A stretch of 64,000 nt of DNA from an uncultured Gammaproteobacteria bacterium (GCA_964499955.1 CAZCMI010000001.1:39485-103484); one strand, 5' to 3'; shown: positions 40,442-63,900, counted from the stretch's first letter. The notes: generated by a model not told the origin, from the sequence alone. Numbers and translations: made by a program.

Positions 40442-41404
40442 ATGTCCGAACAGCGCAATCTCCTGTCCATCGTCGTGCCTGTCTTTAACGAGGAGGGGAA
40501 TCTTCCGGCCCTCGTTGAGGCCTTGCGCGCGGCGGTGGCGGAAACCGGCATGGACGCGCAGTTCCTCTTCGTGGACGATGGGTCCACGGACGGCGGCCCC
40601 GCCTGGCTGGCGGAAGCGGCCCGCCGGGACGAACGCGTGGCGGTCATCGCCCTGTCGCGCAATTTCGGCAAGGAAATCGCCTTGAGCGCCGGGCTGCACC
40701 ACGCGACCGGCGACGCCTGCCTCATGCTGGACGCCGACTTGCAGCATCCGCCGGAACGCATCCCCGCGTTCGTGGCCGCGTGGCGGGCAGGGAACGACGT
40801 CGTCATCGGCGTGCGCCATGACGAAGCGGACGCCTCCTGGGTGCGCCGCGCGTGCTCGGCGGCCTTCGCGCGGTTCATGTCCCGCGCGTCCGACACGCCC
40901 TTCGTGCCCGGAGCCACGGACTTCCGCCTGCTGGACCGGACGGTCGTGGACGCCTTCAACCGCTTTACGGAACACCGCCGCATGACCCGCGCGTTGGTGG
41001 ATTGGCTCGGGTTCCGCCGCGCCTGCATCCCGTTTTCGGCCCGGGCGCGCGCCAACGGCACGTCCCACTACGGCTTCGGCCGCCTGCTGCGCCTGGCGGT
41101 GGCGGGCGTGGTGTCGCACAGTTTCTTCCCGTTGAAATGGGCCGGCATCTTCGGCATTGCCATTACGGTGGCGTCCGGGGCCTTCGGCCTGTTCCTGCTG
41201 GTGGAAAAATATCTCTTGGGCGACCCGTTCGGTTGGAACGTCTCCGGTGCCGCGTCCCTGGCCGTGCTGAACGTCTTTTTGACCGGCGTGATGTTGAGCT
41301 GTATGGGCCTGCTTTCTCTGTACGTTTCGCACATTCACGCGGAAGCCGCCAACCGGCCGTTGTACGCGGTGCGCGCCCGGCTGAACGTGCCGCCGCGGGT
41401 ATGA
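40442..41404 (+). CDS. GT2 polyprenyl-phosphate glycosyltransferase (Dpm1/GtrB/ArnC-like) with C-terminal TM helices
   Basis: LSIVVPVFNEEGNL...FVDDGSTDG...DADLQHPPE plus two C-terminal TM segments. The start lies in the TTCCTATGTCC context. Confidence 0.8.
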   Translation: MSEQRNLLSIVVPVFNEEGNLPALVEALRAAVAETGMDAQFLFVDDGSTDGGPAWLAEAARRDERVAVIALSRNFGKEIALSAGLHHATGDACLMLDADLQHPPERIPAFVAAWRAGNDVVIGVRHDEADASWVRRACSAAFARFMSRASDTPFVPGATDFRLLDRTVVDAFNRFTEHRRMTRALVDWLGFRRACIPFSARARANGTSHYGFGRLLRLAVAGVVSHSFFPLKWAGIFGIAITVASGAFGLFLLVEKYLLGDPFGWNVSGAASLAVLNVFLTGVMLSCMGLLSLYVSHIHAEAANRPLYAVRARLNVPPRV

Positions 41405-43518
41405 CGCCCGACGTCAGCATCATCGTACCGACGAAGAACTCCGCCCGCACGTTGGAGACCTGCCTGCGTTCCTGTCGGGCGCAGGAGGGTGTTTCCGTGG
41501 AGGTCGTCGTGGCGGACAATTTTTCCACGGACGGCACGGCGGAGATCGCCCGGACCCACGCGGACCGGGTGTTTGCGTGCGGTCCCGAACGTTCGGCGCA
41601 GCGGAACGAGGGCGCGCGCCAGGCGCGTGGAAACGTCCTCCTGTTCATCGACAGCGACCTGCGTTTGGAACCGGACGCCGCCCGGGCGTGCCTGAAGGCG
41701 CTGCAGGAGCCGGGCGTTCGCGGCGCGGTCCTGCCGGACGAATCCTTCGGCGAGGGATTTTGGTCGGCGTGCAAGACGGCGGAACGCAAATGCTACGAAG
41801 GGGAAGGGTGGATCGAGACGCCGCGCGCGTTTCCGCGGGACGTGTTTTGGGCCGCGGGCGGGTATGACGAAACGATGGTCAGCGGCGAGGACTGGGACCT
41901 GGCGCAGCGCGTGGGCGGGCCGTTCGTTTGCGCGCGGACGCGCATGTATCACGACGAAGGCCGCCTGCCGTTTTGGGGCGCCGCGCGGAAGAAATGGTAT
42001 TACGGGCGCCGGTTCGTTCCGTACGCGGACAAGGCGGAACACGCGGACCTGCGCCGCGCGCAGCTGAGCGCGCGCAAGCGGTTCGCTCTTTTGTGGCGCA
42101 AGACGGGCGAACGCGGGGAGCCGTTGGCGGTGCGGGTTGGCGTCTTGTGGGTGAAGGCCTGCGAAGGCGTCGCGTTCTTCGGCGGGATGGCTTGGACGCG
42201 CGTATTCGGCGCGCCGCGCGGCATGATGCCGTCCGGCGGGCAGAGCGCCCCCCCCCGCGACATTCCCGCTCGCGGCGCTCTTGACGCCGCGTTCGTGTTA
42301 ACCCCCTGTTTTCCACCGGCCGTGGGCGGGACGGAAGCTGCCTCCTCGCGGCTCGCGCGGTTCTTGGCGACGCGCGTGGGCCGCGTGGAAGTGATTTGTC
42401 CGGCGGATGCCGATCCCGGGGCCGCCCGTGCGTTCGACGCGTCTTTTGAAACGCCCGTGCGCCGGTTCGGTTCCCGGTTGTCCCGTGCGGCGGAGGCAAC
42501 TATCGTCCGTTCGAACCGGGGGACGGACCGCATGTACGGCGGGTCCGCGCCGCCTTCGTTGCGCGCGGGCGTGGAGGCCGCGTTCTTCGGGTGCGCCATG
42601 ACGTGGGGTTTCGCGTGGACCTTGTTCCGCCGAGCGCGGGCCGCGGTGGGCGCGAACGTCGCCGTCTCCTGCCATTCGTTGGCGGCCGTTTTTGCCGCGG
42701 GTCTCGTCCGGCGAGCGGTTCCGTCCAAGAAGATGCGGATCGCGTTCGTCAATGGTTTCGTCATCCAGCGGACGGGACAGACGGTGAAGAACTGGCTGAT
42801 TTCCCTGTGTGTGCGGAGGGCGGACGTCTGCGTGTGCGTCTCGGAGGCCGTGGCCCGGCCCTTGCGGGAGGATTTCGGCGCGCGGAAGACGGTCGTATAC
42901 CACTCCTGGCTGGCGTCGTGGGAGGGCGTGGATCGGGCGTGTGCGGCATCTGACGGCGGGCGCGCGTACGAGGCCGGCGTCCTGCACGTGTTGTTCGTCG
43001 GTCGGATCAGCCGGGAGAAGGGAATCGGGGAATTACTCGCGTGGATCCGGCATCTGCGTGAAACGGGTGACCATCGGTATGCCGTAACGATTGTCGGTAC
43101 GGGGGACCCCGCCTTGGAGCGGGCCGTGCGGGAAGAAGCGGGACGCACGCCGTTCCTGCGCATGTTGGGCCGCGTGGACAAACCGGCCCTGTGGGACGTG
43201 TACGCGTCCCACGACGTTTTCCTCATGCCGTCCGTCTGGCAGGAGGGCGCCGGGAATGTCATTATTGAGGCGGCCGCGTGCGGAGTGCCCGTCTTGGGCG
43301 CGCCCGTCGGCGGGATTCCGGAATTGTCCGGCCTCGTGCCGTTTTCGGCTTTATTGGAAGGGAAGGCGCCGGCGGATTTCACACGGGCGTTGGATGCCAT
43401 GGCCGCGCGCATGCGCGCGGCCGGGCGTCCGGCCGTCGTCCAGGCCTGCCGCGCCGCCGCCCGAACGCATTTTTCGGCTGCCAACGCCGAGGTTATTTGG
43501 AACGCATTCGGTTTATGA
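41401..43518 (+). CDS. bifunctional GT2-GT4 fusion glycosyltransferase (~705 aa)
   Basis: The N-terminal half is GT2 (VSIIVPTKNSARTLETCL...ADNFSTDG...DSDL...GEDWDL). The C-terminal half is GT4 (...VLHVLFVGRISREKGIGELL...EAAACGVPVLGAPVGGIPE). It is a single uninterrupted frame with ATGA overlaps at both ends. Confidence 0.65.
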   Translation: MTPDVSIIVPTKNSARTLETCLRSCRAQEGVSVEVVVADNFSTDGTAEIARTHADRVFACGPERSAQRNEGARQARGNVLLFIDSDLRLEPDAARACLKALQEPGVRGAVLPDESFGEGFWSACKTAERKCYEGEGWIETPRAFPRDVFWAAGGYDETMVSGEDWDLAQRVGGPFVCARTRMYHDEGRLPFWGAARKKWYYGRRFVPYADKAEHADLRRAQLSARKRFALLWRKTGERGEPLAVRVGVLWVKACEGVAFFGGMAWTRVFGAPRGMMPSGGQSAPPRDIPARGALDAAFVLTPCFPPAVGGTEAASSRLARFLATRVGRVEVICPADADPGAARAFDASFETPVRRFGSRLSRAAEATIVRSNRGTDRMYGGSAPPSLRAGVEAAFFGCAMTWGFAWTLFRRARAAVGANVAVSCHSLAAVFAAGLVRRAVPSKKMRIAFVNGFVIQRTGQTVKNWLISLCVRRADVCVCVSEAVARPLREDFGARKTVVYHSWLASWEGVDRACAASDGGRAYEAGVLHVLFVGRISREKGIGELLAWIRHLRETGDHRYAVTIVGTGDPALERAVREEAGRTPFLRMLGRVDKPALWDVYASHDVFLMPSVWQEGAGNVIIEAAACGVPVLGAPVGGIPELSGLVPFSALLEGKAPADFTRALDAMAARMRAAGRPAVVQACRAAARTHFSAANAEVIWNAFGL

Positions 43519-44525
43519 TTGTCGCCAGCGTCGCCGTTCCCGCGCGGAACGCGGAGAAAACCATGGGAGCGTGCCTGCGCGCGCTTGCGCGGCAGACCTT
43601 CCCGCCGGACCAGTTTGAGGTCGTCGTGTGCGACGACGGTTCGACGGACGCAACTCGCGCCATCGTCGAGCGCTTCGCCCAAACCGCCCCCTTCCGCCTG
43701 CGCTTATTGCGGCGCCGTCCCGATGACGTGCACGGCCCCGGCTTTGCGCGCGGGGACGCCTGGCGTGCGTGCGAGGGAGACGTCCTGCTGGCGACGGACG
43801 CGGATTGCGTGCCGGATCCCGCCTGGATCGCCGAAGCCGTCGCGGCCGTGCGGGAACGCGGGGAAGCCGTCGTCTTCGGCGCGACGGTCGCGGAAGACCT
43901 GTTGTTATTTCCACATCGGGCCGCTGCGATCGGCTGGGGCGTCACCGGCAATTGCGCCGCGCGGCGGGACGTTTTCCAGACCCATGCGTTCGACCCCTCG
44001 TTCGTCGGGCTGTACGGCGAAGACGCGGATTATTTCCTGCGGATCGAACGGGCCGGCGTCCGCATCGCCCGCGTTCCCGGCATGCGGGTTCTGCATCCGG
44101 TAAAGGTGTATGGCGCGAAGACGCTCGCGTACCGCGCTTTCAGCAGGAAGAACGAAGCGTTATTGCATAAAAAGCACGGCGGGCGCGCGGCGCCGTTCTT
44201 CCATCCGTTTTTTCGCGCCTTCGGTCGAACGGGCGTTTCCCCGATGTTCCTCGCCGTCGTCGGGTTTTTTCTCGCGGCGGTCTTGCTCATCGCCACCGTG
44301 CCTCTCCGCCTCGTTCTTGTCCTGTTTGCCGCAAGCGCCGTGATGGGCGGCATCTGGTTCCTGTGTTGGGGCTACAAGACGTGTATCATATTCCTGCCGC
44401 CGGACGCGCCGCCCGTGTCGGTGCGGGAACGGGTACGGACGCTCGCTTCGCTTGTCTTGTACATGCCGTGCCTCCTCGCCGCCCGCGTATACGGGTCGGT
44501 CCGATATCATACGTGGTTCGTTTGA
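43515..44525 (+). CDS. GT2 glycosyltransferase with C-terminal TM segments
   Basis: VAVPARNAEKT...VCDDGSTD...ATDADCVPDP. The C-terminus is hydrophobic. Confidence 0.7.
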   Translation: MIVASVAVPARNAEKTMGACLRALARQTFPPDQFEVVVCDDGSTDATRAIVERFAQTAPFRLRLLRRRPDDVHGPGFARGDAWRACEGDVLLATDADCVPDPAWIAEAVAAVRERGEAVVFGATVAEDLLLFPHRAAAIGWGVTGNCAARRDVFQTHAFDPSFVGLYGEDADYFLRIERAGVRIARVPGMRVLHPVKVYGAKTLAYRAFSRKNEALLHKKHGGRAAPFFHPFFRAFGRTGVSPMFLAVVGFFLAAVLLIATVPLRLVLVLFAASAVMGGIWFLCWGYKTCIIFLPPDAPPVSVRERVRTLASLVLYMPCLLAARVYGSVRYHTWFV

Positions 44526-44538: not shown

Positions 44539-46206
44539 ATGACCTTCGCCTCCCTCCGAACCCACGCCGCCGCCTGGTTGAAGCGTTGGGTGCATCTGTG
44601 GCCGTTTCCCCTGGCCGTGCTGGCCGTCACCGGTCCGTGGTTGGCGCCCGGGTACCTGTTTTTCACGGACTTCGCCGTCGGCCCGTATTCCCGCTTTTCC
44701 TGGCCGACGATTGGGGCGCCGGGAAAGGCGCTCATGCACGTCGTCGGCGCGGTGACCTCGAACGACGTCGGGCAGACGGTCTTTTTGGTGGCGCTGTGCG
44801 CCGCCTTGCTCGCCGGCGGGTACCGCCTGGCCCGCGCGTTTACGGACGACAAAACCGTCGCCGTGGTGGCGGGGTTATTCTTCCTGTTCAATCCGTTCGT
44901 GTACGACCGCTTCGGCTACGGGCAGGTGTGGGTGATCGCCAGCGTGGCCTGCATGGCCCTGGCCTTCGCCTCCGCCTGCGATTGGACGCGCGACCCGGCG
45001 GGGAAGCGCTGGGCCATCTTCCGCGCCTTGGCGTGGGCGGGGTTGTCCGTGCACTTCACGCCGCACGCGGCGTATTTGTTGGCGCCGCTCGCCCTGGCCT
45101 GGCTCGTTTGGTCCGTGCGGGAAACGGTGGCGGCGGGGACGGCGAAGGACATCTGGCGCGCGGCCATCGTGCCCGTGCTGCTCGGTCTCGCGGCCGCGGC
45201 CGTGATGAACCTCAACTGGGTCTGGCCCAGCGGCGGTGGCGGCGGGGGCGGCCTGTGGATTTCCACGGAGGAAATTACGTGGCACCACTTCCAGGTGTTC
45301 CGCACGGCGGGGGAGACGGCCTTCGACGCTTCGGCCCGCGTGGCGGCCTTGGCGGGCTTTTGGGGCGCCGCCCAGCACCGCTACCAGGATTTCACCGCCG
45401 AACCCGGCTGGATGAGCGCGTTCCTGCTGTCCGTGCCGTTGTTGGCCGCGGGCTGGTGGCAGGGCATGCGCGACCCGCGCCGGCGGTGGCTGGCCTGGGG
45501 GACGCTCGCCGCGGCGTTTGTTTCCTTCCTGCTGGCCTTGGGGTTGGCGTCCGCGCCCACGGAGGCGCTCACCCGCTTCCTCTTTGCCCACGCGCCCGGC
45601 TACTCCGGCATGCGCGAAACGCAAAAATGGGCGGCGGTGATGCTGGTGTGCTACGTCGTGTGGCTCACGTGGGGCCTGGCCTGGCTCCGCACGCGCACAT
45701 GGGTGCGCGGCTGGCGCGCGGCGCTCACCGCGTTCGTGGCGGCCGTCATGATCGCCCAGGCGCCGCTGTTGGCCTGGGGGCTGCACGGCGCGTTCACCCC
45801 GCGCCCCTACCCGGACGATTGGCAGGAACTGGCCGTTTGGTTGGAAGAACGCGGCTGCGACGGCACCATCGTCTTCCTGCCGTGGCACATGTACATGGCC
45901 TTCCGGTGGATCGGCCCCGCGCCGGTGATCCGGCCGACCGCCGCTTTCCCGTGCCGCATGCTCGGCACGTCGGACATGGAATGGGGCGGGGTGGAGGTGA
46001 TTGAGCGGGGAGCGCAGGGAGAGGTGGCCGCCTGGGTGAAAGCCCAGGGCAAAACCGACGTCCTGGCCGACCCGGACATCGACATCCGCCTGATCGTCCT
46101 GGCCAAGGAAGCGGACTGGCAGCGGTATGCGTGGCTTGCGAACGTTCCCGAGCTGCGCGGCGTATTCGACACGCCCACGCTGCGCGTGTACGAGGTCGTG
46201 CGGTAA
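44539..46206 (+). CDS. polytopic membrane protein, putative GT-C-fold glycosyltransferase (unassigned family)
   Basis: ~11 TM segments, an internal G9 run and a ~150-aa C-terminal extracytoplasmic domain. Confidence 0.4.
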   Translation: MTFASLRTHAAAWLKRWVHLWPFPLAVLAVTGPWLAPGYLFFTDFAVGPYSRFSWPTIGAPGKALMHVVGAVTSNDVGQTVFLVALCAALLAGGYRLARAFTDDKTVAVVAGLFFLFNPFVYDRFGYGQVWVIASVACMALAFASACDWTRDPAGKRWAIFRALAWAGLSVHFTPHAAYLLAPLALAWLVWSVRETVAAGTAKDIWRAAIVPVLLGLAAAAVMNLNWVWPSGGGGGGGLWISTEEITWHHFQVFRTAGETAFDASARVAALAGFWGAAQHRYQDFTAEPGWMSAFLLSVPLLAAGWWQGMRDPRRRWLAWGTLAAAFVSFLLALGLASAPTEALTRFLFAHAPGYSGMRETQKWAAVMLVCYVVWLTWGLAWLRTRTWVRGWRAALTAFVAAVMIAQAPLLAWGLHGAFTPRPYPDDWQELAVWLEERGCDGTIVFLPWHMYMAFRWIGPAPVIRPTAAFPCRMLGTSDMEWGGVEVIERGAQGEVAAWVKAQGKTDVLADPDIDIRLIVLAKEADWQRYAWLANVPELRGVFDTPTLRVYEVVR

Positions 46207-46225
46207 GTGATGAAGAGGGAACAAC

Positions 46226-46278: not shown

Positions 46279-48861
46279 ATGCTTGTTTTCTTTTCCAACG
46301 GTATGTCCCTTGAGAGCGTCCAGACGTGTGCGCGGCAGACGGCCGCGCGCTGGTTGCCCGCGGCGTTGATCGCCGTGGCCGCCTGTTTCCTGTTCGCGCC
46401 GCGCGTGCACGCGCATTTTCTCCGTGTAGACGGCCCGGTCGGTTGGGGCTACGGCTACGGGTACGGCTTTACGGCCGGCTACGGCTGGGACGAAGGAACG
46501 CAGGCGGGCGTGCGCCTGTCCGGTGAACCGGGTCCGGTGGGGGTAGATACGTCCATCTCATCCACCACGTGGCACTTCACCTATAACGAAATCACGGGTG
46601 ATTACGCCTACGAAGTGGTCGGCAACCAGGAATTCGACGACGGAAATGTGCCTCTTGAGGAATTGGACAGCGTCGACGACGGCATGTCCGACGGCGTGTA
46701 CCTGGGCTTCGATTTCCCGTTCTACGGGGAAACGTACGGCTACGGCTACGCGTCCACGAACGGGTTCCTCACGTTCAACCCGGACTCCTACGACGGCTGC
46801 TGCAACGGGCTCGCAATGCCGGATCCGGATCTGGCGGAGGAAGAGGATCTTCATTCCCTTATCGCCGGGTTTTGGACGGACTTGTCCAATAGTTTCGAGG
46901 GGGCGCGCATGTTCTACCGGTTGGTCGCCGGGGAACCCGGCGAGTCCCTCGCTATTTTCCACTGGGAAGATGTCCAGGTCCGGTATAGCGGCGGATCAAC
47001 GGCCACCGTCTCGTTCAGGATCGTCTTGGAGGAATCGGGCGATTTCTACGTGGAGTTGATTGCCTTGAATAACCAGCCGGAGGATAACTACCATCTCACC
47101 ATCGGCAGCTTGAACCAGGACGCCACCCGCGCCACCACGGTGTACAACGCGTTCCACGTGGGTGGTCGGCAGAGCCTCGGTTTGTACGGATACGGCTATG
47201 GCTACGGCCTGCCGTTGTGGAACAATGCCAACGTGCTCGCGTATGACGCGCAGACCAACACGTACGACATCCCCGCGTCCGCGTTCCCATTTGTCGTGCA
47301 ATCCGGCCTCATCGACATCCCCGGCTTCTCCGGCGATCTGGACGACATCGATTACGATGAAAACGAAGACCAATGGATGTCGAGTTTCGTGATGAATCTC
47401 CGCGTTCGCGTCGGCGAGCACACCGTCTATTTCCCGCAGGGCACGATCTTGGACACGGGAGATTTGTCCAACTGGTCGGCGTCGGCCAGCGTGGACACGA
47501 CGGGTGTTGAAGGCACGGTTCGCGCCGCCCTGTCGATCAAGGTGAACTCCTGGGATCTGACCGACATCGACGAAGAAGACCCGGTCTACACCTTCAAGGT
47601 GAACAGCGGGTTGAACGGGCAGAGCTTGGCCGTTTGGTCCTTTGAGGAAGGCGGCTGGTGGTTGACGGAGGACAGCTGCACGGTTTCGGGCGGCTTCTGC
47701 GTCGTCGACTCGTTCGACAACGTCGGTGCCATCGCGCTCTCCGGCGGCACCATTTCCTCCGGCGGCGGGGGTGGCGGCGGCGGTTCTTCCTTCGGCGCCC
47801 CGCAGACGACGTCCCTCACCATCGCCCAACCCACCTCCGGTACCCAGCTCGCCCACGGCAGCTCCACCTCCATCGTGTGGTACGCCCAGGGAGGCATCGC
47901 GCAGGTCCGCGTGTCCCTCTCGTATGACGGCGGTACCACGTGGAGCGTCGTGCTCGGCACCACGCCCAACAGCTTCCTGCCGTGGACGGTTCCCAATGCG
48001 GCCACGCAACAGGCCCGCATCCGCTTGGAAGGATTGTCCTCGAGCGGATCCGTGCTTGCCACAGCCGTTTCCCAGCCCTTCACCATCACCGGCACGACGG
48101 AAGCGCCCGTCACGGTTGTCCCGCCCACGGAAGGAACCATCGGCTTCAACGAAGACCGCCTGGGCGTCTCCTTCCCGCAGCGCGTCACCCGGGAAGAAGC
48201 CAACGCCGCGCTTCCCGCCGGCATCGTCGTGGACGACCTCATCAAAGTTCCCGATGACGGCAATCCCGTCACCCAGTCCGACACCACCGTGTACTATGTG
48301 GGCATGGACGCCCGCCGCCATCCGTTCCCGAGCGCCGCGTCCTTCCTGTCCTGGTACCCGGACTTTGGCGACGTGAAGGACGTCACTTTGGAACAGCTTT
48401 CCGCCATTCCCTTGGGTTCCCCCATCATGCCGCGGCCCGGCACGCACTGGGTGAAGATCCAGAGCGACCCCAAGACCTACTTCGTTTCTCCCGGCTACGT
48501 GCTGCACCACGTTGCCGACGAAGCGACCGCCGCCCTGCTCGGCGGACCCGACTGGAACCGGAACGTCGTGGACATCGAACCCACGTTCTTCCCCCGGTAT
48601 CTCCAGGGCCAGTCCATCACCCTCCAGAACCTCCAGATTTCCTGGCCGTCCGGCGCCCTGCTGCAAACCGTTGAGAACCCGGGCCAAACGTACCTGATGA
48701 CCTCCGAAGGCCTCCGGTTGTTCGCCGACGATTCCTTCGCGCAAAACCGCTACCAAGAACGCTTCATTCTCAAGACGTCCGCTTCCTCCCCCTGGAACGC
48801 TCTCCAGCGCGGGAACCCCATCGCCTCGCAGGAAGACCGGCTGTGGAGTTTGATGCATTAG
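46279..48861 (+). CDS. secreted surface protein (860 aa): GY-repeat N-terminal region, poly-Gly hinge, Ig-like domain, shared C-terminal module
   Basis: GWGYGYGYGFTAGYG, ...SSGGGGGGGSSFG, SIVWYAQGGIAQVRVSLSYDGGTTWSVV and TVYYVGMDARRHPFPSAASFLSWYPDF...HWVKIQSDPKTYFV. An alternative start is at 46303. Confidence 0.6.
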   Translation: MLVFFSNGMSLESVQTCARQTAARWLPAALIAVAACFLFAPRVHAHFLRVDGPVGWGYGYGYGFTAGYGWDEGTQAGVRLSGEPGPVGVDTSISSTTWHFTYNEITGDYAYEVVGNQEFDDGNVPLEELDSVDDGMSDGVYLGFDFPFYGETYGYGYASTNGFLTFNPDSYDGCCNGLAMPDPDLAEEEDLHSLIAGFWTDLSNSFEGARMFYRLVAGEPGESLAIFHWEDVQVRYSGGSTATVSFRIVLEESGDFYVELIALNNQPEDNYHLTIGSLNQDATRATTVYNAFHVGGRQSLGLYGYGYGYGLPLWNNANVLAYDAQTNTYDIPASAFPFVVQSGLIDIPGFSGDLDDIDYDENEDQWMSSFVMNLRVRVGEHTVYFPQGTILDTGDLSNWSASASVDTTGVEGTVRAALSIKVNSWDLTDIDEEDPVYTFKVNSGLNGQSLAVWSFEEGGWWLTEDSCTVSGGFCVVDSFDNVGAIALSGGTISSGGGGGGGGSSFGAPQTTSLTIAQPTSGTQLAHGSSTSIVWYAQGGIAQVRVSLSYDGGTTWSVVLGTTPNSFLPWTVPNAATQQARIRLEGLSSSGSVLATAVSQPFTITGTTEAPVTVVPPTEGTIGFNEDRLGVSFPQRVTREEANAALPAGIVVDDLIKVPDDGNPVTQSDTTVYYVGMDARRHPFPSAASFLSWYPDFGDVKDVTLEQLSAIPLGSPIMPRPGTHWVKIQSDPKTYFVSPGYVLHHVADEATAALLGGPDWNRNVVDIEPTFFPRYLQGQSITLQNLQISWPSGALLQTVENPGQTYLMTSEGLRLFADDSFAQNRYQERFILKTSASSPWNALQRGNPIASQEDRLWSLMH

Positions 48862-48876: not shown

Positions 48877-48914
48877 AAAACCCCCGTCATATGGCGGGGG
48901 TTTTGTGTTACCAT
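48877..48914 (+). promoter_or_regulatory. terminator hairpin fused to TTTTGTG + -10-like TTACCAT, 9 nt before the subtilisin ATG
   Basis: aaaacccccgTCATATGGcgggggTTTTGTGTTACCATgggcgcgttATG. Confidence 0.45.
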
Positions 48915-48923
48915 GGGCGCGTT

Positions 48924-57202: not shown

Positions 57203-57241
57203 AAATCATTTGCCCTAAGTATACAGGAAAGACGTCGTGGT

Positions 57242-57823
57242 ATGGCCTTCGCACGCGACCCGCACAAACTTTTCCCGCATGACAAGCTGTTCGCCGCCAC
57301 CATCCTGCGGCTGGTGCCGGATTTCGTTTCGCCGAACATGGTCACCATCCTGCGGTTCGTACTGACGCCGTTCGTGCTGTTCTTGATGATCATGGAAGAT
57401 TGGAACGTCGCCGTGCCGTTGTTCCTGCTCGTCGCGTTCACGGACGCCTTGGACGGTTCGCTGGCCCGCGTGCGCCGCAAGGTTACCGCCTGGGGCACGT
57501 TTTACGATCCCGTCGCGGACAAACTGCTGATCGGTTCGGTGGTGCTGATCATCGTGGCGAAGTACGTCAATCCGTGGTTCGCCCTGCTGATCTTGCTGAT
57601 GGAAGTGCTGATCATCGCGGGCGGGCTGTGGCGCAAGCGCCAGGGCGTGGTGATGTCGGCCAACGTCTTCGGCAAAACCAAGATGTTCCTGCAGGTGGCG
57701 GGCGTGAGTTTCCTGTTGTTCGCCGTGTGGTCCGGCGTGAGTTTGTTCGTGCCGTTGTCCGTGGGGACGCTGTCCGTGGCCATCGTCTTCGCTGTCATCA
57801 GTTTGTTCACCTACGGGTTATGA
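57242..57823 (+). CDS. CDP-alcohol phosphatidyltransferase family protein (PgsA-like)
   Basis: DALDGSLAR...G..YDPVADK fits the D-G-x2-A-R...G-x3-D-x3-D motif. 5-6 TM segments. Confidence 0.7.
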   Translation: MAFARDPHKLFPHDKLFAATILRLVPDFVSPNMVTILRFVLTPFVLFLMIMEDWNVAVPLFLLVAFTDALDGSLARVRRKVTAWGTFYDPVADKLLIGSVVLIIVAKYVNPWFALLILLMEVLIIAGGLWRKRQGVVMSANVFGKTKMFLQVAGVSFLLFAVWSGVSLFVPLSVGTLSVAIVFAVISLFTYGL

Positions 57824-59589
57824 GGCGTCCCGGCACCGTCGCGTTGTGGCTGGCCGCCGCCGCGTTGTGTTGCGCGTCGTTCGTTTTGTGGCGGCACGGG
57901 TTTACGTTCCTGTCGCCGGACGAATCGGCCAACGCGTTCTTTGCGCGCACGTTTGCGGAGACGGGGCGGCTGTTCGTGGAAGAACCGTTGAACGCCGAGC
58001 TGGGGGACGCGCTGTATCCGCGCAGCGTCATTTCCCTGGGCGCGCGGGTGGTGCCGGTGGGATTTTTCGGGGTGCCGTTGGTGTTCGGTGCCGTGGCGGC
58101 CGCGTTCGGCCCCTGGGCGATGGCAGCCGTGACGCCGCTGTTGGCCGCGTTGACCGTGCTGGCGTGGGCGGCTGTCTGCGGGCGGTTGTTCGGCGAGCGG
58201 ATCGGGTGGCTTTCCGGCATGCTCTTCGCCGTGCATCCGGCGCTGTGGTACTACGCCTCGCGTTCGTTCATGCCGAATGTGCCGTTCCTGGCGTTTTTGA
58301 CGTTCGCGGCGTTTTTCCTGGTGGCGCGGCCGTTTGCGGACGGTCGGGCGGGGAGGTGGATGGAGAAGGTCGTTGGGGCGCGGAAGGAACTTCTGCCTTT
58401 GTTGGATGCCGCGTGCGCCGGGCTGTGCTTTGGCGCGGCGTTGTTGATTCGCCCGGCGGAAGGACTGTGGGCTGGCGCGGCGATGGCGGCCGTGCTGTGG
58501 TGGACGCGCGCCAAGGGCCGGGCGATGTGGCGCATGCCAGCCGCGTTCGCCGTGGCGTGTTTGGTGGCGTTGGCGCCTTGGCCGTTGTTGAACCGGGACT
58601 TGTACGGCGGCGCGCTCAACACGGGGTATACGCCGACCGCCACGGTATCCTCTGATGACAATGGGAGGGCGGGCTACGCGGCTCCCGACGACAGAGATCC
58701 GACGACCATGAGGGAGGCCGACGTGAAGGAGGCCGAACCGGGTTGGCAGGAGATGTCGGGACGGGAGGCGACTGAAGCGGCGTCGTTGCGCGACCGGATC
58801 GAAACCGCGCTGGAACCTGTGCTGCCGTTCGGCGTCCATCCGCGCCTGGCGTGGGGGGAATTCCAGATGTACGGCTGGGGCATGTTCTGGTGGATGTTCT
58901 TGCTCGCCGCCGTTGGCGTCCCCGCGTTCTTCCGTTCGCAACAAGGGCGGGCGGGCGCGCGTTGGCGGTATGCCGCGCTGGCCGCGGGCGTGTCGGGCTG
59001 GTTGTGGATCATGTACGGCAGCTGGAGTTTCCACGACAATCCCGACCCGACCCAAATCACCATCGGCAATTCGCACGTGCGGTATTGGCTGCCGATCTTC
59101 CTGCTGATGACGCCGCTTGCTGCCGCCGGCGTGGATTGGGCGCTCGGGCATCTGCGTTCCGCGCGGGCACGTGCCGTTCTGCTCGGCGGGTTGTTTGCCG
59201 TCCTCCTGGCGTTGTGCGTGCGCACGGCGTGGTTCATGCCACAGGACGGCCTGCGCGACGCCTTGGCCGCCCTGGAACAATCCGCCATCGCGCGGGAACG
59301 CGTGCTGGCCCGCACGGAGCCGGACGCCGTGGTCATCGTGGACCGGGCGGACAAGATCCTCTTCCCGCACCGTCGCGTGCTCTATCCCCTGCGGGAGGAG
59401 CGCACCTACGCGCTCATGCCCCTCATCGCCGCGCGCGCGCCGTTGTATTATTACGGCATCACCTTCCCGCCGCGAGACGTCGCCTGGCTGAACGCGGAAA
59501 AACTGCCGCCGCTCGGCCTGCAGATCGAAGCGGTGGAGACCGTCGGGGAGGAGACGCTGTATCGGATTTGGGAGGCGGCGAGTGAGTAG
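57820..59589 (+). CDS. GT-C glycosyltransferase, PMT/ArnT-like (GT39/GT83 family)
   Basis: A DE motif in the first extracytoplasmic loop (LSPDESANAFF), ~11 TM segments and a C-terminal soluble domain. ATGA overlap with the PgsA-like gene. Confidence 0.55.
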   Translation: MRRPGTVALWLAAAALCCASFVLWRHGFTFLSPDESANAFFARTFAETGRLFVEEPLNAELGDALYPRSVISLGARVVPVGFFGVPLVFGAVAAAFGPWAMAAVTPLLAALTVLAWAAVCGRLFGERIGWLSGMLFAVHPALWYYASRSFMPNVPFLAFLTFAAFFLVARPFADGRAGRWMEKVVGARKELLPLLDAACAGLCFGAALLIRPAEGLWAGAAMAAVLWWTRAKGRAMWRMPAAFAVACLVALAPWPLLNRDLYGGALNTGYTPTATVSSDDNGRAGYAAPDDRDPTTMREADVKEAEPGWQEMSGREATEAASLRDRIETALEPVLPFGVHPRLAWGEFQMYGWGMFWWMFLLAAVGVPAFFRSQQGRAGARWRYAALAAGVSGWLWIMYGSWSFHDNPDPTQITIGNSHVRYWLPIFLLMTPLAAAGVDWALGHLRSARARAVLLGGLFAVLLALCVRTAWFMPQDGLRDALAALEQSAIARERVLARTEPDAVVIVDRADKILFPHRRVLYPLREERTYALMPLIAARAPLYYYGITFPPRDVAWLNAEKLPPLGLQIEAVETVGEETLYRIWEAASE

Positions 59590-59628: not shown

Positions 59629-60435
59629 ATGAAAAAACATCTCCCCATTATCACCGCTGCCGTTCTCGCCGCCGCCCCCGCGGTGTTGTTCGGCTGGTTG
59701 GCGTGGCAGGAATTAGTGCCGGGCGGCACGTTTCGTGCGGCCTGGGAGCCGGGGGAGCGGTCGTCGTTCATCGACCCGATCCGGCCGGACCAGCGCGTGC
59801 TGCCGCCGTCGCGCGCGGGCGGGGAGCGCCAGCAGGCCGTGGTAGGCGATCCCGTCTACACCTTCCTGCATCCGCACCGGCATTTCGACGCCGTGTCCTT
59901 GGAAATCCGCTTCCGCAACGAAGGCGTGCCGATCATTGAAGCGGGCGGGTTGGTGCAGGCCGGGCCGGACGAAATCTACGACCTGCATCCGGTGGACAAC
60001 CTGCTCATCGACGGGTCGGCGTGGCCGCGCTTGGAAGAAGACGGCTATGCGTTGTTGCAACGTCAGCCGACATATGCGAGCGTCGACGCATTTTTCCAAC
60101 AGCCGCCCCCGCCGGAGCGCATGGCGACGTATCGCTGCGACCGCTGCACGTGGGAAGGGTCTCCGCGCCTGCTGCCGGAGCTTGATCTCGATGCGGCGGG
60201 CGTGGACTTCGTCATTGCCCGGTATGAAACGCCGCGCCAGGAAGGAAGTTGGAAGGTGGCGACGGTCGATTTGGACCCGTCCAAGATGCTGGCCCAGCGT
60301 GGAGCGTGGAAGGTCGTTCTGTCCGCACCCGGTGCGGGGAAGGACGGCCGCGCCGTGGTGGTGAACCGTCTGGAAGCGACCTTCCGCCGTGACACGCTGC
60401 GGGAAGAACTGCGCAAACGCATGCCCTGGCTATGA
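59629..60435 (+). CDS. hypothetical secreted/anchored protein
   Basis: N-terminal signal/anchor; no known motif. Confidence 0.35.
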   Translation: MKKHLPIITAAVLAAAPAVLFGWLAWQELVPGGTFRAAWEPGERSSFIDPIRPDQRVLPPSRAGGERQQAVVGDPVYTFLHPHRHFDAVSLEIRFRNEGVPIIEAGGLVQAGPDEIYDLHPVDNLLIDGSAWPRLEEDGYALLQRQPTYASVDAFFQQPPPPERMATYRCDRCTWEGSPRLLPELDLDAAGVDFVIARYETPRQEGSWKVATVDLDPSKMLAQRGAWKVVLSAPGAGKDGRAVVVNRLEATFRRDTLREELRKRMPWL

Positions 60436-60806
60436 AAAACCCCCTGCATCGGAGCAACCCATGGGAGTCGGCGGCGCGCATCGTGCTGGCGGCGTCCTTG
60501 GCGTGGTACGCCGCGTTCTGGCTGGCCGACGCGCTGCGGCCGGGTTTCGTTTCCCGATATCTGTCCGTGCATTGGTTCCTGCTGGTAGCCCTGGCTTGCG
60601 CCGGCTGGCTGCTCGTTCTTGGGGTCACATCCGCCAAATGGACGAAGATACCACGCGCATGGCTGCTGCTTGCGCTGCCCGCCGGACTCTTGGCAGGATG
60701 GGTGGCGTGGCGCGTCGGTGCCGGGGCGGGGGAATACCGCGTCTTGCTGGCCCTGCTCGCCTTCACCGCACCGTTTGCCTTGTCGCATGTTCGCCACTCT
60801 TCCTAA
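60432..60806 (+). CDS. small hypothetical 4-TM membrane protein
   Basis: Hydrophobic, Trp-rich. ATGA overlap. Confidence 0.35.
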   Translation: MKNPLHRSNPWESAARIVLAASLAWYAAFWLADALRPGFVSRYLSVHWFLLVALACAGWLLVLGVTSAKWTKIPRAWLLLALPAGLLAGWVAWRVGAGAGEYRVLLALLAFTAPFALSHVRHSS

Positions 60807-60818: not shown

Positions 60819-61226
60819 ATGCCCGACTGCCTCTTTTGCAACATCGCCGCGCGTGAAATCCCCGGGGAAATCGTGTACGAAGACGACCGTACGCTGGCGT
60901 TCCTCGACATCCGGCCGATCAATCCCGGCCACACGCTGATCATTCCGAAGCGGCACGCGGAAAATTTCGCCGTCACACCGCCGGAAGATATCGCCGCCGT
61001 CATGGCCGCGGCACAGAAATTGGCCCCCGCCATTTTGCGCGCCACGGGCGCCGAGGCGTTCAATTTTTCCACCAACAACGGTCGGGCCGCCGGGCAGGTC
61101 GTCTTCCACACGCATTTCCACCTGATGCCGCGCCTCCCCAAGGACGGCTACGAGCATTGGCGCGGGCCGGACGTCCCGGCGGATTTGGCGTCGGTGGGGG
61201 AGAAGATTCGCGCGGCGTTGGCATAG
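60819..61226 (+). CDS. HIT-family (histidine triad) hydrolase
   Basis: C-terminal HTHFHLMPR histidine triad. N-terminus MPDCLFCNIAAREIP. Confidence 0.85.
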   Translation: MPDCLFCNIAAREIPGEIVYEDDRTLAFLDIRPINPGHTLIIPKRHAENFAVTPPEDIAAVMAAAQKLAPAILRATGAEAFNFSTNNGRAAGQVVFHTHFHLMPRLPKDGYEHWRGPDVPADLASVGEKIRAALA

Positions 61227-61234: not shown

Positions 61235-61263
61235 TTGACGGGCCGGGCGGGTTCGCGTAGCAT
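61235..61263 (+). promoter_or_regulatory. sigma70-like promoter TTGACG-N17-TAGCAT
   Basis: cgTTGACGggccgggcgggttcgcgTAGCATgc. The downstream GTG start at 61317 is preceded by an SD-like GGAGAAAGGAAG. Confidence 0.45.
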
Positions 61264-61316
61264 GCGAACTCGCCCTTTTTCTCTCCCACCCCGGCATCGC
61301 CGGAGAAAGGAAGCAC

Positions 61317-61970
61317 GTGTTCGCCACGCAAACGTATCGCCTCGCCGCCATCGCCCGGGATATTTTCCACGGCTTGGCCGCGGGGAAGCCCGAGGTCCGT
61401 CGGCTCATCGCTCCGCTGATGGAAGAGCGCATCCGGGAATTTGTCCCGGACGACGCCGATCCGGATCCGCGGGTCGTCCTCGTCTCCTTCGTGGGTGCGG
61501 ACGGCCGGGCAGACGCGCATGAGCCGCGTGGACCCGTCTCGTTGCATGTGCACACGCGGTACAACGCGACGGTGGTGCGCGTGCCGTTCCTGGTCGTGGA
61601 TCTCCGGGTCCGCGCCGGGACGTGGTTCTTCCTCTTCCTTCTGCGGGAGCTGGAGTCCCTGCGTCTCGCACGCATCCGTGCGGCCGAGGCCGACGAGGGC
61701 GCCATGTTCTACGGTCCCCGGGCCGACCAGGACGCGGCAGCGGCGCATCGGTTCGTCGGCACCTTGCTGGAGCGCGTCGCAGGGCCGTTCTTCAACCCCC
61801 GCCTGCGCAAGGTGCGTCGGGCCGCCCCAGCGGATCGCCGTTCGGTGGCAGACACGCTCGCGGAAGATTTCTGCGAGGAAATACGCTACGTGTGGCAAAG
61901 CTGGCCCGGCATGGACGCCGCCTGCCGCGCGTTCATCGCCGACGCCCTCTTCCACGGGGCCGACGTCTGA
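61317..61970 (+). CDS. hypothetical protein
   Basis: 217 aa, GTG start with an SD; no recognised motif. Confidence 0.35.
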   Translation: MFATQTYRLAAIARDIFHGLAAGKPEVRRLIAPLMEERIREFVPDDADPDPRVVLVSFVGADGRADAHEPRGPVSLHVHTRYNATVVRVPFLVVDLRVRAGTWFFLFLLRELESLRLARIRAAEADEGAMFYGPRADQDAAAAHRFVGTLLERVAGPFFNPRLRKVRRAAPADRRSVADTLAEDFCEEIRYVWQSWPGMDAACRAFIADALFHGADV

Positions 61971-62010
61971 TCTCCTGCGGGGGGTCTTTTTTTTATCCGC
62001 CGCGGGCGTC

Positions 62011-62039: not shown

Positions 62040-62048
62040 GGGCGCATT

Positions 62049-63053
62049 ATGAAGATTCTCGTTACCGGCGGCTGCGGCTTCATCGGCTCGAATTTCATCC
62101 GGTCCCTGCTGGCCCGGCGCCCCGACGTTTCCCTCGTGAACCTGGACGCGCTGACGTATGCCGGCAACCCGGCCAACCTGCGCTCCGTTGAAAACGATCC
62201 GCGCTACGCCTTCGTCCGCGGCGACATTACGGACGCGGCGTTGTTGGATCGCTTGTTCACCGAGCATGCGTTCGACGCCGTCGTGAACTACGCGGCCGAA
62301 ACCCACGTGGACCGTTCCATTTTGGACCCGGACGTGTTTTTGCGAACCAACGTCATGGGCACGCACCGCCTGCTGGAAGCCGCGAAGAAATTCGGCGTGA
62401 AGAAATTCGTGCAGATTTCCACGGACGAAGTGTACGGGGAAGTGCTCGAGGGCGAGGCGAAGGAAGACCATCCGTTTGCCCCGCGCAGTCCGTATTCCGC
62501 TTCCAAGGCCGCCGCGGACCACCTCTGCCGCGCCTACGCCGAAACCTACGGCCTCCCCGTGGTCGTCACCCACGGCGCCAACATGTACGGTCCGTACCAC
62601 TATCCCGAGAAGGTCATCCCGCTGTTCATCACCAACCTGATGGAAGGAAAGAAGGTTCCGTTGTACGGCGAGGGCGCGCAAATCCGCGAGTGGATGCACA
62701 TCGAGGACCACGCGCGCGCCATCGAACTGATTTTGGAGAAGGGGAACGGCGGCGACGTGTACAATATCGGCACGGGGGAGCGTTTCAGCAACCTGGAGCT
62801 GACGCGCAAGATCCTGGCGGCGATGGAAAAGGGGGAGGAGCACATCGAACGCGTGAAGGACCGCGCCGGGCACGACGCCCGCTACGCCTTGGACGCCCGC
62901 CGCCTGCGCGCCCTGGGCTGGGCGCCGTCCATCTCCTTCAACGACGGCTTGCGGCAGACCATCGCCTGGTACCGGGAAAACGAAGCGTGGTGGAAGCCCA
63001 TCAAAAGCGGGGAATATATCGCCTATTACAAAACGCAGTACCACGACCGGTAA
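62049..63053 (+). CDS. rfbB: dTDP-glucose 4,6-dehydratase
   Basis: MKILVTGGCGFIGSNFIR...NLDALTYAGN...AAETHVDRS...YSASKAA, a full RmlB signature. Confidence 0.9.
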   Translation: MKILVTGGCGFIGSNFIRSLLARRPDVSLVNLDALTYAGNPANLRSVENDPRYAFVRGDITDAALLDRLFTEHAFDAVVNYAAETHVDRSILDPDVFLRTNVMGTHRLLEAAKKFGVKKFVQISTDEVYGEVLEGEAKEDHPFAPRSPYSASKAAADHLCRAYAETYGLPVVVTHGANMYGPYHYPEKVIPLFITNLMEGKKVPLYGEGAQIREWMHIEDHARAIELILEKGNGGDVYNIGTGERFSNLELTRKILAAMEKGEEHIERVKDRAGHDARYALDARRLRALGWAPSISFNDGLRQTIAWYRENEAWWKPIKSGEYIAYYKTQYHDR

Positions 63054-63054
63054 T

Positions 63055-63900
63055 ATGAAGATCCTCATTTTCGGCAAAGGCATGGTGGGAAGCCGCTGCG
63101 CGGAGGCGTGGCCCGACGCCGTGTTGTCCGACGTCCGCGTCGTCACGAAAGAGGACGCCTTGGCGGAAATCCGCCGCCACAACCCCGACGCCGTGTTGAA
63201 CGCCGCGGGCGTGACCGGCAAGCCGAACGTGGACTGGTGCGACCAGCCGGGCAACCAGCTGCCGACCATCCTCGGCAATACGCTCATGCCCATCGTGCTG
63301 GCCCAGGCCTGCCAGGAAGCGGGCGTGTACCTGCTGCACGTCGGTTCCGGCTGCATCTTCTACGGCGACTCCCCGCACGCGGACAAGAAATGGCGCGAGG
63401 ACGACTTCGGCAACCCGCTGCCCGCCTATTCCCGCAGCAAGTGGGCGGCCGACCTGGTGCTTTCCACCCTGCCGAACGTCGGGATCGCGCGCATCCGCAT
63501 GCCGCTGGACCACCAGCCCGGTTCGCGCAACCTCATCGACAAACTGGCAAAATACCCGAAGGTCATCGACGTGGAAAACAGCGTCACGGTGGTGGACGAC
63601 ATGGTGGACGCCTTCCGGCAGTTGCTCGAAAAGAAGGGGGAGGGGATTTTCCACGTGACTAATCCCGGCACGATCAAGCACCGCGAACTGCTGGGCTTGT
63701 ACGAAGAACTGGTCGATCCGTCCCACACGAACGAATGGATCACGGCCGAGGAATTGGTAACCACCGGGCTGGCCACGAAACTCCGCAGCAACAACTTCAT
63801 GCATTCCAGCCGGTTGGAGGCGCTTGGGATCCACATGCGTCCGGCGAAGGAGGCGTTGCGCGACACGATGGAAAAGTATGCCCGCTTGACCCGCCCGTAG
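63055..63900 (+). CDS. RmlD-like sugar-nucleotide reductase (dTDP-4-dehydrorhamnose reductase family)
   Basis: MKILIFGKGMVGS...NAAGVTGKPNVDWCD...YSRSKWAAD matches the RmlD substrate-binding family. It lies immediately after rfbB. Confidence 0.6.
   Translation: MKILIFGKGMVGSRCAEAWPDAVLSDVRVVTKEDALAEIRRHNPDAVLNAAGVTGKPNVDWCDQPGNQLPTILGNTLMPIVLAQACQEAGVYLLHVGSGCIFYGDSPHADKKWREDDFGNPLPAYSRSKWAADLVLSTLPNVGIARIRMPLDHQPGSRNLIDKLAKYPKVIDVENSVTVVDDMVDAFRQLLEKKGEGIFHVTNPGTIKHRELLGLYEELVDPSHTNEWITAEELVTTGLATKLRSNNFMHSSRLEALGIHMRPAKEALRDTMEKYARLTRP

Follow-up and report, generated by a model that had tools for sequence, protein, structure and literature searches.

Introduction

The transfer of sugars from polyprenyl-phosphate carriers by membrane glycosyltransferases of the GT-C fold class is a well-known mechanism. 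In Streptococcus pyogenes, the family 2 glycosyltransferase (GT2) GacI and its DUF2304 partner GacJ make GlcNAc-P-undecaprenol, from which the GT-C enzyme GacL transfers GlcNAc to rhamnan; PpgS and Rv3632 are the Mycobacterium tuberculosis equivalent, and their polyprenyl-P-HexNAc is then used by a GT-C enzyme (10.1101/180810). In these cases of multi-component transmembrane glycosylation of wall polymers, the sugar is transferred outside the membrane. GT2 and GT-C enzymes also act together in the Ppm1/Pmt system of Actinobacteria, the Pgf system of Streptococcus mutans and the GtrB/PgtC2 system, where the acceptors are extracytoplasmic Ser/Thr proteins (PMC12041528). Described here is a cluster of glycosyltransferase and sugar-nucleotide genes (g1 to g20) between positions 40442 and 63900 of a 64,000-nucleotide stretch of DNA, referred to as the window, from a genome titled uncultured Gammaproteobacteria bacterium (CAZCMI010000001.1:39485-103484). 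The span consists of two units, a conserved core of g6-g20 (48.9-63.9 kb) and a strain-specific accessory module of g1-g4. By their family assignments, both modules very probably perform extracytoplasmic glycosyl transfer from polyprenyl-phosphate sugars with GT2 and GT-C enzymes. As an overall explanation, a two-unit envelope-glycoconjugate locus of Uhrbacteria-type Patescibacteria with a lipid-anchored product is tentatively preferred.

The core shares with GacI/GacJ/GacL and with PpgS/Rv3632/Rv3779 a soluble GT2, a DUF2304 neighbor and GT-C proteins, but it differs from them in several respects. Two GT-C proteins of the PMT_2 clan are present, one of them without a Pfam model, and the GT2 (g8) scores below the PpgS cut-off. 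A gene resembling UDP-xylose synthase (UXS) precedes the GT2, and the sugar may be a pentose. Neither a rhamnan primer nor an exporter lies in the locus, and the operon includes a PgsA-like gene. Ppm1/Pmt, Pgf and GtrB/PgtC2 likewise combine a GT2 with a GT-C enzyme; in contrast to them, the present locus has no PF02366 or MIR domain, its best PgfS score is far below the cut-off, and its core carries many extra enzymes.

Two lipid-directed pathways have much in common with the locus. In mycobacteria and corynebacteria, the route from phosphatidylinositol (PI) through PI mannosides (PIM) to lipomannan and lipoarabinomannan (LM/LAM) employs PgsA1/PIPS, PimA, PimB', Ppm1 and GT-C enzymes, which amounts to the same parts list, including two family 4 glycosyltransferases (GT4). 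The mycobacterial operon Rv2613c-pgsA1-pimA-Rv2609c includes a HIT gene, and a HIT protein is also encoded nearby here (NUDIX in relatives). Unlike in that pathway, g13 resembles PgsA and not PIPS, neither an acyltransferase nor an inositol-phosphate synthase was seen, the GT-C proteins belong to the PMT_2 clan and not to GT87, and the sugars are probably xylose and rhamnose instead of mannose and arabinose. The Arn pathway, in which the acceptor is a lipid, offers a decarboxylase-type short-chain dehydrogenase/reductase (SDR), a GT2 synthase, small membrane proteins and a PMT_2-family GT-C enzyme, all of which have counterparts here. However, the scanned genes include no Arn aminotransferase, formyltransferase or deformylase, no ArnC or ArnT cut-off was reached, and the SDR is far nearer to UXS1 than to ArnA, so the gene set is not that of the Arn pathway. 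The host, moreover, is presumably a monoderm without lipid A. A third likeness concerns g4, whose predicted fold matches the membrane domain of AftD in the AftD/YfhO/MmpA group; g4 does not have the large soluble domains of AftD, and the host has no mycomembrane or arabinan.

Literature searches returned no description of this cluster in Patescibacteria or Uhrbacteria, and the idea that rhamnose polysaccharides may take the place of teichoic acids in these bacteria appears in one paper as speculation only (PMC11809585). What is new is the conserved patescibacterial arrangement itself, a GT-C family of about 1,500 clusters for which no curated model exists, a PgsA-like enzyme of atypical kind whose gene is linked to that of a GT-C enzyme, a rhamnose synthase of the NRS/ER type that replaces RmlC and RmlD, and a surface-protein domain designated A4. 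Since the underlying mechanism is well known, the locus is of value as a lineage-specific variant with its parts rather than as a new principle. The Patescibacteria, most of them uncultured, form a very large group of host-attached cells whose envelope chemistry is essentially unexplored, and the locus provides testable handles on their cell coat and on the way in which they hold or modify large surface proteins.

Conservation and organization of the locus

The anchor of the conserved locus is g12. When species-representative genomes were scanned with the g12 family, at least 506 proved to contain a relative, and the best 80 were kept. Occurrence was counted in 36 loci from separate species with full 10-kb flanks, and absence in 84 neighborhoods. 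The collinear order g6, g7, g8, g9, g10, g11, g12 (minus strand), g13, g14, g15, g16, g17, g19, g20 and the strands of the window are kept in almost all 36 loci, two of which have an extra or displaced gene, and this collinearity extends across patescibacterial classes at protein identities of 30-60% (Table 1). Four loci that were reached independently through g14 homologues have the same order, namely an S8 peptidase gene (in some cases), SDR, GT2, DUF2304, GT4, GT4, g12 on the minus strand, CDP-alcohol transferase, PMT_2-like protein, proteins of about 480 and 120 residues, HIT or NUDIX, RfbB, an RmlD-type gene and RmlA.

None of the 84 neighborhoods, by contrast, contains a counterpart of g0-g5 or g18. 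In locus L004, a homologue of the TPR gene of the window directly precedes the S8 gene; this adjacency and the absence of g0-g5 from those neighborhoods identify the segment of 32.5-48.9 kb, with the gene for a 2,395-residue surface protein, g0 and g1-g5, as an insertion into the backbone. Homologues of g4 elsewhere occur in varied glycosylation contexts. The preliminary description of this DNA had treated the whole span as an island and proposed a synteny comparison to separate its conserved from its accessory parts. That comparison assigns the right two-thirds to a conserved chromosomal locus, and insertion-like behavior is confined to the segment of 32.5-48.9 kb. Horizontal acquisition of the entire span was considered and rejected, as its GC content is unremarkable, the only tRNA in the window lies at 6.8 kb and the core is conserved in place.

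Named homologues come from Candidatus Uhrbacteria or Patescibacteria, and the best 80 genomes are nearly all titled Patescibacteria (Uhr-, Falkow-, Komeili- and Parcubacteria) or unclassified 'bacterium'. The remainder comprises about 20 entries titled 'uncultured Gammaproteobacteria', which are third-party metagenome-assembled genomes (e.g. L006, L007, L015, L018 and L021), and one titled Lysobacteraceae. The Gammaproteobacteria and Lysobacteraceae titles on such cluster-bearing assemblies are probably wrong. The window itself is assigned to an ultrasmall bacterium of the Patescibacteria, similar to Uhrbacteria.

Genes were called from codon-position GC (a GC3 frame plot) combined with open reading frame (ORF) analysis, given that a G+C content of 65% in the window swamps raw ORF lists with spurious frames. 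This approach yielded 20 genes within the span and the small g0 before it, all on the plus strand except g12. The strand of g12 is indicated by its codon-position GC values (GC1/GC2/GC3 of 0.73/0.51/0.85) and by 46 database homologues. It had been claimed that at least 17 consecutive genes share one strand and that most are joined by ATGA stop/start overlaps. With g12 reversed, the longest same-strand runs are 11 and 8 genes, and such overlaps occur at only 6 of the 19 junctions (g1/g2, g2/g3, g9/g10, g10/g11, g13/g14 and g15/g16), the remaining junctions having gaps of 2-91 nt. Terminator-like hairpins lie 3' of g4 (46223-46246), g17 (61245-61275, a strong one) and g18, and therefore the span holds several transcription units; g4 ends the g1-g4 operon, and g17 is the last gene of a g13-g17 unit. 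Only 39 nt (57203-57241; 19-48 nt in relatives) separate the starts of the divergently oriented g12 and g13, which means that their promoters must overlap or sit inside coding sequence. Elsewhere in the window there are housekeeping genes for FtsA/Z, IF3, L20 and SmpB, and the loci of relatives lie near L27, CtpB and MurA-like genes.

Table 1. Genes of the cluster and related features of the window, with their occurrence in the 36 full-flank loci.
Feature	Coordinates	Strand	Description	Full-flank loci
~1,220-aa secreted protein	27945..31607 (ORF from 27723)	+	N-terminal A4 domain, nt 28074-28433; no Pfam match	
TPR protein	31715..32416	+	233 aa; conserved-backbone marker	
2,395-aa surface protein	32552..39739	+	Big_5 Ig-like domain; four GYGYGYG motifs; C-terminal A4 domain, nt 39374-39733; strain-specific insertion	
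g0	39823..40368	+	181 aa; N-terminal hydrophobic segment; no known domain; no counterpart in relatives	
g1	40442..41404	+	GT2 with two C-terminal transmembrane helices; accessory module; Pfam PF00535 9e-32	
g2	41401..43518	+	GT2-GT4 fusion, 705 aa; accessory module	
g3	43515..44525	+	GT2 with C-terminal transmembrane segments; accessory module	
g4	44539..46206	+	membrane glycosyltransferase, AftD/YfhO/MmpA-type GT-C	
g5	46279..48861	+	860-aa secreted protein; two GYGYGYG motifs; A4 domain, nt 48286-48618	
g6	48891..50492	+	secreted subtilase (Peptidase_S8, Pfam 4e-52); C-terminal A4 domain, nt 50076-50489; first core gene	19/36, same position
g7	50561..51598	+	SDR; UDP-glucuronate decarboxylase (UDP-xylose synthase)-like	26/36
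g8	51628..52296	+	soluble GT2, PpgS/GacI type	27/36
g9	52311..52661	+	DUF2304, three transmembrane segments; GacJ/Rv3632-type partner; Pfam PF10066 4e-23	26/36
g10	52658..53809	+	GT4	32/36
g11	53806..55032	+	second GT4	31/36
g12	55073..57202	-	709-aa membrane protein, ~13 transmembrane helices; divergent GT-C candidate	
g13	57242..57823	+	CDP-alcohol phosphatidyltransferase, atypical PgsA-like; Pfam 2.6e-30	30/36
g14	57820..59589	+	GT-C, PMT_2 (ArnT-like) clan via homologues	35/36, with g12
g15	59629..60435	+	268-aa membrane-anchored extracytoplasmic protein; no known fold	29/36
g16	60432..60806	+	conserved 124-aa protein with several transmembrane segments; no known family	23/36
g17	60819..61226	+	HIT (HinT-like) protein	26/36
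g18	61317..61970	+	217-aa orphan; no domain; no counterpart in relatives	
g19	62049..63053	+	dTDP-glucose 4,6-dehydratase (RfbB)	33/36
g20	63055..63900	+	NRS/ER-type bifunctional 3,5-epimerase/4-reductase	25/36; median 70% identity

Candidate donor synthases, GT4 enzymes and nucleotide-sugar enzymes

Each module contains a candidate polyprenyl-phosphate sugar synthase. In the core this is g8, a PF00535 protein without C-terminal transmembrane (TM) helices whose neighbor g9 starts 14 nt downstream and matches PF10066 at 82 bits, well above the cut-off of 25.5. A TM-less GT2 beside a DUF2304 gene is the arrangement by which the GacI/GacJ and PpgS/Rv3632 pairs are recognized, and it is found in g8/g9. 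Against the PpgS model (NF058614), g8 scores 152 bits (1.4e-44) where the cut-off is 370; the likeness is thus at the level of the family only and does not extend to the PpgS equivalog, a polyprenyl-P-GalNAc synthase. Its score against the ArnC model is 45 bits (cut-off 529). In the accessory module, g1 is a candidate synthase of the GtrB/ArnC/PgfS type whose best NCBIfam models are PgfS (198 bits, cut-off 500) and ArnC (160 bits, cut-off 529). The cytoplasmic set had previously been listed as two Dpm1/GtrB-like GT2s, one further GT2, two GT4s, a GT2-GT4 fusion and a DUF2304-like partner, and all of these are present (g1 and g8, g3, g10 and g11, g2, and g9, respectively).

Turning to the GT4 enzymes, g11 is assigned by family match, and for g10 the closest relatives with a full-length solved structure are PimA, MshA and PimB'. 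MshA and BshA are also its best NCBIfam models; a role in mycothiol or bacillithiol synthesis was discarded, as this is a generic GT4 likeness and the scores fall far below the cut-off.

Two routes to nucleotide sugars are encoded. The best solved relative of g7 is human UXS1 (8.5e-68, 232 bits), followed by a match of 100 bits, with ArnA at about 54 bits. Together with its YDEGKR motif, which we take to be typical of UXS, this makes g7 a UXS-like protein for which UDP-xylose synthase activity is predicted. A guess that the polyprenyl-linked donor sugar may be a pentose, xylose, is prompted by the contiguity of g7, g8 and g9, the coding regions of which overlap in locus L001. At the other end of the core, g19 matches the RfbB model TIGR01181 at 460 bits (cut-off 365). 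The earlier view of the nucleotide-sugar enzymes stands for UXS-like g7 and for RfbB, but not for an RmlD-like reductase: g20 reaches 8.4e-43 with NRS/ER (4qqr) and 1.1e-30 with the mimivirus UDP-L-rhamnose synthase (7jid), compared with 1.4e-5 for RmlD (1kbz), and scores 62 bits against the RmlD model TIGR01214 (cut-off 224). The plant NRS/ER and mimivirus enzymes, to which it is closest, are both bifunctional 3,5-epimerase/4-reductases. This bifunctional type accounts for the absence of RmlC, and g19 and g20 would together yield NDP-L-rhamnose without it. Across 25 of the 36 relatives g20 is about 70% identical and RmlC is missing, whereas loci L003 and L004 carry classic RmlC and RmlD.

Predicted membrane glycosyltransferases

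Three large membrane proteins, g4, g12 and g14, had been described as GT-C-like, one of them as PMT/ArnT-like. The GT-C type is borne out for g4 and, by way of its homologues, for g14, and is probable for g12; an invariant acidic loop motif occurs in each. The PMT part does not hold: PF02366 (PMT), MIR and PMT_4TMC gave no match in g4, g12, g14 or 33 members of the g14 family, and in the absence of PF02366 and MIR none of the three is a PMT/GT39 enzyme. In the structural comparisons, the top 24 matches of g4 and the top 8 of g12 are all GT-C structures.

For g4, an alignment-based AlphaFold2 model has a mean predicted local distance difference test (pLDDT) score of 89.8, and Foldseek matches it to AftD in the PDB (2.8e-7, query TM-score 0.60), then to STT3, ArnT, DPY19, PglB and AftA. 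All 24 sequences compared have Asp44 in the first loop. Judging from this model, g4 has the two features of the GT-C superfamily, a polytopic core fold and an acidic residue in loop 1. It also matches the NCBIfam model MmpA (3e-33; 115 bits, cut-off 210), and some of its homologues are annotated as YfhO or PF11847.

The g12 protein belongs to a large patescibacterial family, with 1,552 clusters at 50% identity, and has itself no match in Pfam or NCBIfam. It carries an invariant motif, G218-F219-D220-x-F222-x-H224, in which Asp220 is a predicted loop residue. The AlphaFold2 model (pLDDT 91) gives weak PDB matches that run from PglB at 1.7e-3 to E 4e-2 with TM-scores of about 0.25-0.42 and include STT3, DPY19 and AftA. 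A comparison of family profiles by hhalign aligns g12 with g14 over 329 columns (probability 92%, E 6.7e-7), and g12 may therefore be a GT-C protein distantly related to g14, although the model-based part of this assignment is weak. Kinship of g12 with g4 was also tried, and the two profiles are unrelated (probability 6%).

As for g14, invariant residues S32-P33-D34-E35 lie in loop 1, and the clan assignment comes from 33 homologues of 28-51% identity, of which 20 match PMT_2 (PF13231, best 3.6e-10), four match STT3 and three are Alg9-like. Searching PDB sequences with the g14 family profile gave no matches. The PMT_2 family of these relatives is of the ArnT type and says nothing about a protein acceptor. 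No Pfam match was obtained for g4, g5, g12, g14, g15, g16 or g18.

The PgsA-like enzyme and its neighbors

The presence of a CDP-alcohol phosphatidyltransferase, as first proposed, is confirmed by g13. Its motif, DxxDGxxARx8GxxxDxxxD, is complete, with D68, D71, G72, A75, R76, G85, D89 and D93 invariant in 67 orthologues. It scores 90.3 bits against the PgsA model TIGR00560 (cut-off 109.1) and 30.9 bits against the PIPS model NF045883 (cut-off 170), and its sole PDB match is Staphylococcus aureus PgsA (4.6e-11). In that enzyme the glycerol-3-phosphate head group is bound by K83, R110, R118, K137 and Y181 (PMC8640168). Among the 67 cluster-linked orthologues of g13, the equivalents of K83, K137 and Y181 are kept. 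The equivalent of R110 is always V, L, I, M or F, that of R118 is G or A in 65, and neither is ever basic, a basic R-K-R cluster following three residues downstream; T138 is replaced by an invariant Met. These changes to the predicted pocket are compatible with a different alcohol acceptor, without being proof of one. The gene is adjacent to g14 in 63 of 64 loci.

Of the genes that follow g14, g15 belongs to a family (29 members) with no Pfam or PDB match. All 54 orthologues have at least 465 residues (usually about 470-500); the window copy lacks about 215 internal residues, in frame, and either a true deletion or an assembly artefact may account for this. Among the 30 members of the g16 family, no Pfam match is consistent and none is to GtrA; a single weak match to Ost5 (E 0.064) was treated as noise.

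Surface proteins and the A4 domain

The A4 domain, for which neither Pfam nor the PDB offers a match, is about 120 residues long and occurs in four secreted proteins, in copies that are 48-53% identical (phmmer E 1e-33 to 1e-36). The protein of about 1,220 residues carries it at the N-terminus, the 2,395-residue protein and g6 at the C-terminus, and g5 near the C-terminus. GYGYGYG motifs, too, are common to the 2,395-residue protein and g5, as is an additional region in which the two are 33% identical. The S8 orthologues bear A4 at the same C-terminal position in at least 15 relatives. The domain was found in at least 314 metagenomic stretches, in many architectures and often in two or three adjacent genes; that scan used the alignment of the four sequences, favors orthologues of the window copies and is no unbiased measure of association.

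The preliminary description had linked the cluster to giant Ser/Thr-rich surface proteins next to it. The linkage is supported in several distant relatives, where a protein of about 1,200-1,300 residues and the S8 protease, each bearing A4, lie upstream of the cluster. On at least nine contigs (L088, L104, L106, L107, L110, L124, L126, L145 and L155), a protein of about 1,200-1,400 residues with an N-terminal A4 domain stands beside cluster genes (g6 and/or g7 onward), and five of the nine also have S8 with a C-terminal A4. The Ser/Thr richness is real but only moderate: Ser and Thr make up 15.7-19.3% of the giant proteins, compared with about 8-11% in other proteins of the window, and no long tracts occur, the maximum being 15-18 Ser/Thr per 50 residues. 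In Firmicutes with the CWB2/PSII system, the polymer genes lie near the surface-protein genes. Here the secreted neighbors fit either of two roles, as substrates of the glycosyltransferases or as ligands anchored to a polymer that these enzymes make.

Proposed product and alternatives

Taken together, the predicted activities suggest the following scheme. In the cytoplasm, g7 would make UDP-xylose, and g19 with g20 NDP-L-rhamnose. With the aid of g9, g8 would load a sugar onto polyprenyl phosphate, g10 and g11 would glycosylate an acceptor at the inner face of the membrane, and g13 would supply or make a phosphatidyl-alcohol lipid. After flipping, g12 and g14 could act outside the membrane, passing the sugar carried by polyprenyl phosphate on to the acceptor, and the A4-bearing secreted neighbors may associate with the resulting glycan. 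The accessory genes g1-g4 would form a second set, of a GtrB-type GT2 and an AftD/YfhO-type GT-C enzyme, that decorates the same polymer or the 2,395-residue and g5 proteins. The coupling of a GT2 polyprenyl-phosphate synthase to GT-C enzymes in extracytoplasmic, lipid-linked transfer is the portion of the earlier interpretation that survives, with g8/g9 and g12/g14 as one pairing and g1 and g4 as the other.

That the acceptor of the core is specifically lipid-anchored, giving a product like lipomannan or glycosylated lipoteichoic acid in its logic, is a possibility held with somewhat less than even confidence. It is favored because the phosphatidyltransferase gene g13 is fused into the g14 operon, because there are two GT4s with PimA, MshA and PimB' among the nearest solved relatives, and because the parts list parallels the PI-PIM-LM pathway. 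It is also favored because no priming phosphoglycosyltransferase, Wzx, ABC exporter or LCP ligase was found among the scanned genes of the window, g0-g20 included. In the loci of relatives, the sole priming-type gene is one of PF00953 type, situated about 10 kb from the g14 homologue at the end of a locus and cut by that end. The genes g0-g20 are thus not a classic Wzx/Wzy or ABC-dependent polysaccharide locus. A Wzy_C (O-antigen ligase/polymerase-like) membrane protein, followed by two GT4s on opposite strands, is encoded at 20770-25434, 26 kb upstream of the core.

Several observations weigh against a lipid-anchored product. Every equivalog-level NCBIfam cut-off was missed except that of RfbB, and the specificities for sugar and acceptor are guesses. 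The similarity of the GT4s to PimA and MshA is generic, the structural matches of g12 are weak (E ~1e-3, TM ~0.4), and g14 has no Pfam match of its own even at E 10. A source of UDP-glucuronate for g7 was not found in the window, and no flippase was identified, g16 not being GtrA-like. In six full-flank loci that are more distant, no CDP-alcohol transferase lies near g12. The gene g13 is therefore not indispensable and could be a housekeeping phosphatidylglycerol (PG) synthase parked there; five of these six loci keep g14 (three of them together with both GT4s), which makes g12 and g14 the oldest core. Finally, a protease and large surface proteins are conserved beside the cluster, and a protein-directed role fits this equally well.

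Such a role, protein O-glycosylation in which GT-C enzymes move polyprenyl-phosphate sugars made by the GT2s onto Ser/Thr of the large secreted proteins and S8, as in Ppm1/Pmt, Pgf and GtrB/PgtC2, is considered unlikely. The GT2 and GT-C pairs are in place, the best NCBIfam match of g1 is PgfS from the protein-glycosylation system of S. mutans, and the streptococcal GtrB/PgtC2 and Pgf systems glycosylate Ser/Thr-rich extracytoplasmic regions (PMC12041528). The giant neighbors, moreover, have about twice the Ser and Thr of other window proteins, a secreted protein of 1,200-1,300 residues and S8 precede the core in several relatives, and g1-g4 share their strain-specific segment with two surface proteins. 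On the other hand, the relatives of g14 match PMT_2 and not PMT/GT39, MIR is lacking, long disordered tracts rich in Ser/Thr were not found, and the equivalog cut-offs are missed. A system that transfers a single sugar also needs neither two GT4s, nor a PgsA-like enzyme, nor two nucleotide-sugar pathways; these extra enzymes point to a more complex and probably non-protein glycoconjugate. The protein O-mannosylation or ArnT-type chemistry first envisaged is not supported, in view of the missing PF02366 and MIR domains and of the missing Arn aminotransferase, formyltransferase and deformylase.

A peptidoglycan-linked rhamnose wall polysaccharide akin to the group A carbohydrate has a similarly small chance of being the product. 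According to this model, a rhamnan is built in the cytoplasm, g8/g9 provide the donor, a GacL-like GT-C enzyme adds side chains and A4 binds the polymer. The GacI/GacJ architecture of g8/g9 with GT-C partners speaks for it, as do the rhamnose enzymes conserved in the locus, which are followed by RmlA/RmlC in relatives. Genes for dTDP-rhamnose are prevalent in Patescibacteria, for which a rhamnose wall polysaccharide has been proposed (PMC11809585), and one report describes non-covalent anchoring of Firmicutes surface proteins to a wall polymer through CWB2/PSII (PMC4973711). However, neither a GacO/WecA primer nor the exporter and ligase named above occur among the scanned genes of the window, apart from the single PF00953-type gene in relatives; the PgsA-like gene linked to g14 would be left without a role; and binding of the polymer by A4, a domain without database matches, would be pure supposition.

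Within the preferred lipid-anchored explanation, a closer parallel to PIM and LM can be drawn, and it is rather improbable in its details. There, the product would be a lipid-anchored glycan not known before: g13, with its altered head-group pocket, would make a phospholipid anchor other than PG, the PimA-like GT4s would prime it, the paralogues g12 and g14 (possibly as a heterodimer) would add pentose from polyprenyl-phosphate xylose outside the membrane, and A4 would dock the surface proteins onto the polymer. Least probable is the absence of any single pathway, with envelope housekeeping genes (PG synthase, rhamnose enzymes, glycosyltransferases, protease) kept together by genome streamlining, which would suit the setting among housekeeping genes, the several transcription units split by terminator-like hairpins and the lack of g13 in some relatives, but not the collinearity at 30-60% identity across classes, the start/stop overlaps of g9/g10/g11, g13/g14 and g15/g16, the adjacency of g13 and g14 in 63 of 64 loci or the coherent set of donor synthase, partner and GT-C genes.

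Other genes of the window

The enzyme families named at the outset are nearly all present, even though several details were wrong, and some genes of the span had been passed over altogether: the secreted protein g5, the Peptidase_S8 gene g6, g15, g16, the HIT gene g17 and g18. The orphans g0 and g18 have good coding statistics, and terminator-like hairpins bracket g18. Just upstream of the first large secreted protein, a DUF5667 protein is encoded at 26642-27778. Farther upstream (17349-20666) lies the gene for a protein of 1,105 residues that is 10% Cys and contains seven putative metal-binding repeats of the MopE type (PF11617, 1.6e-43).

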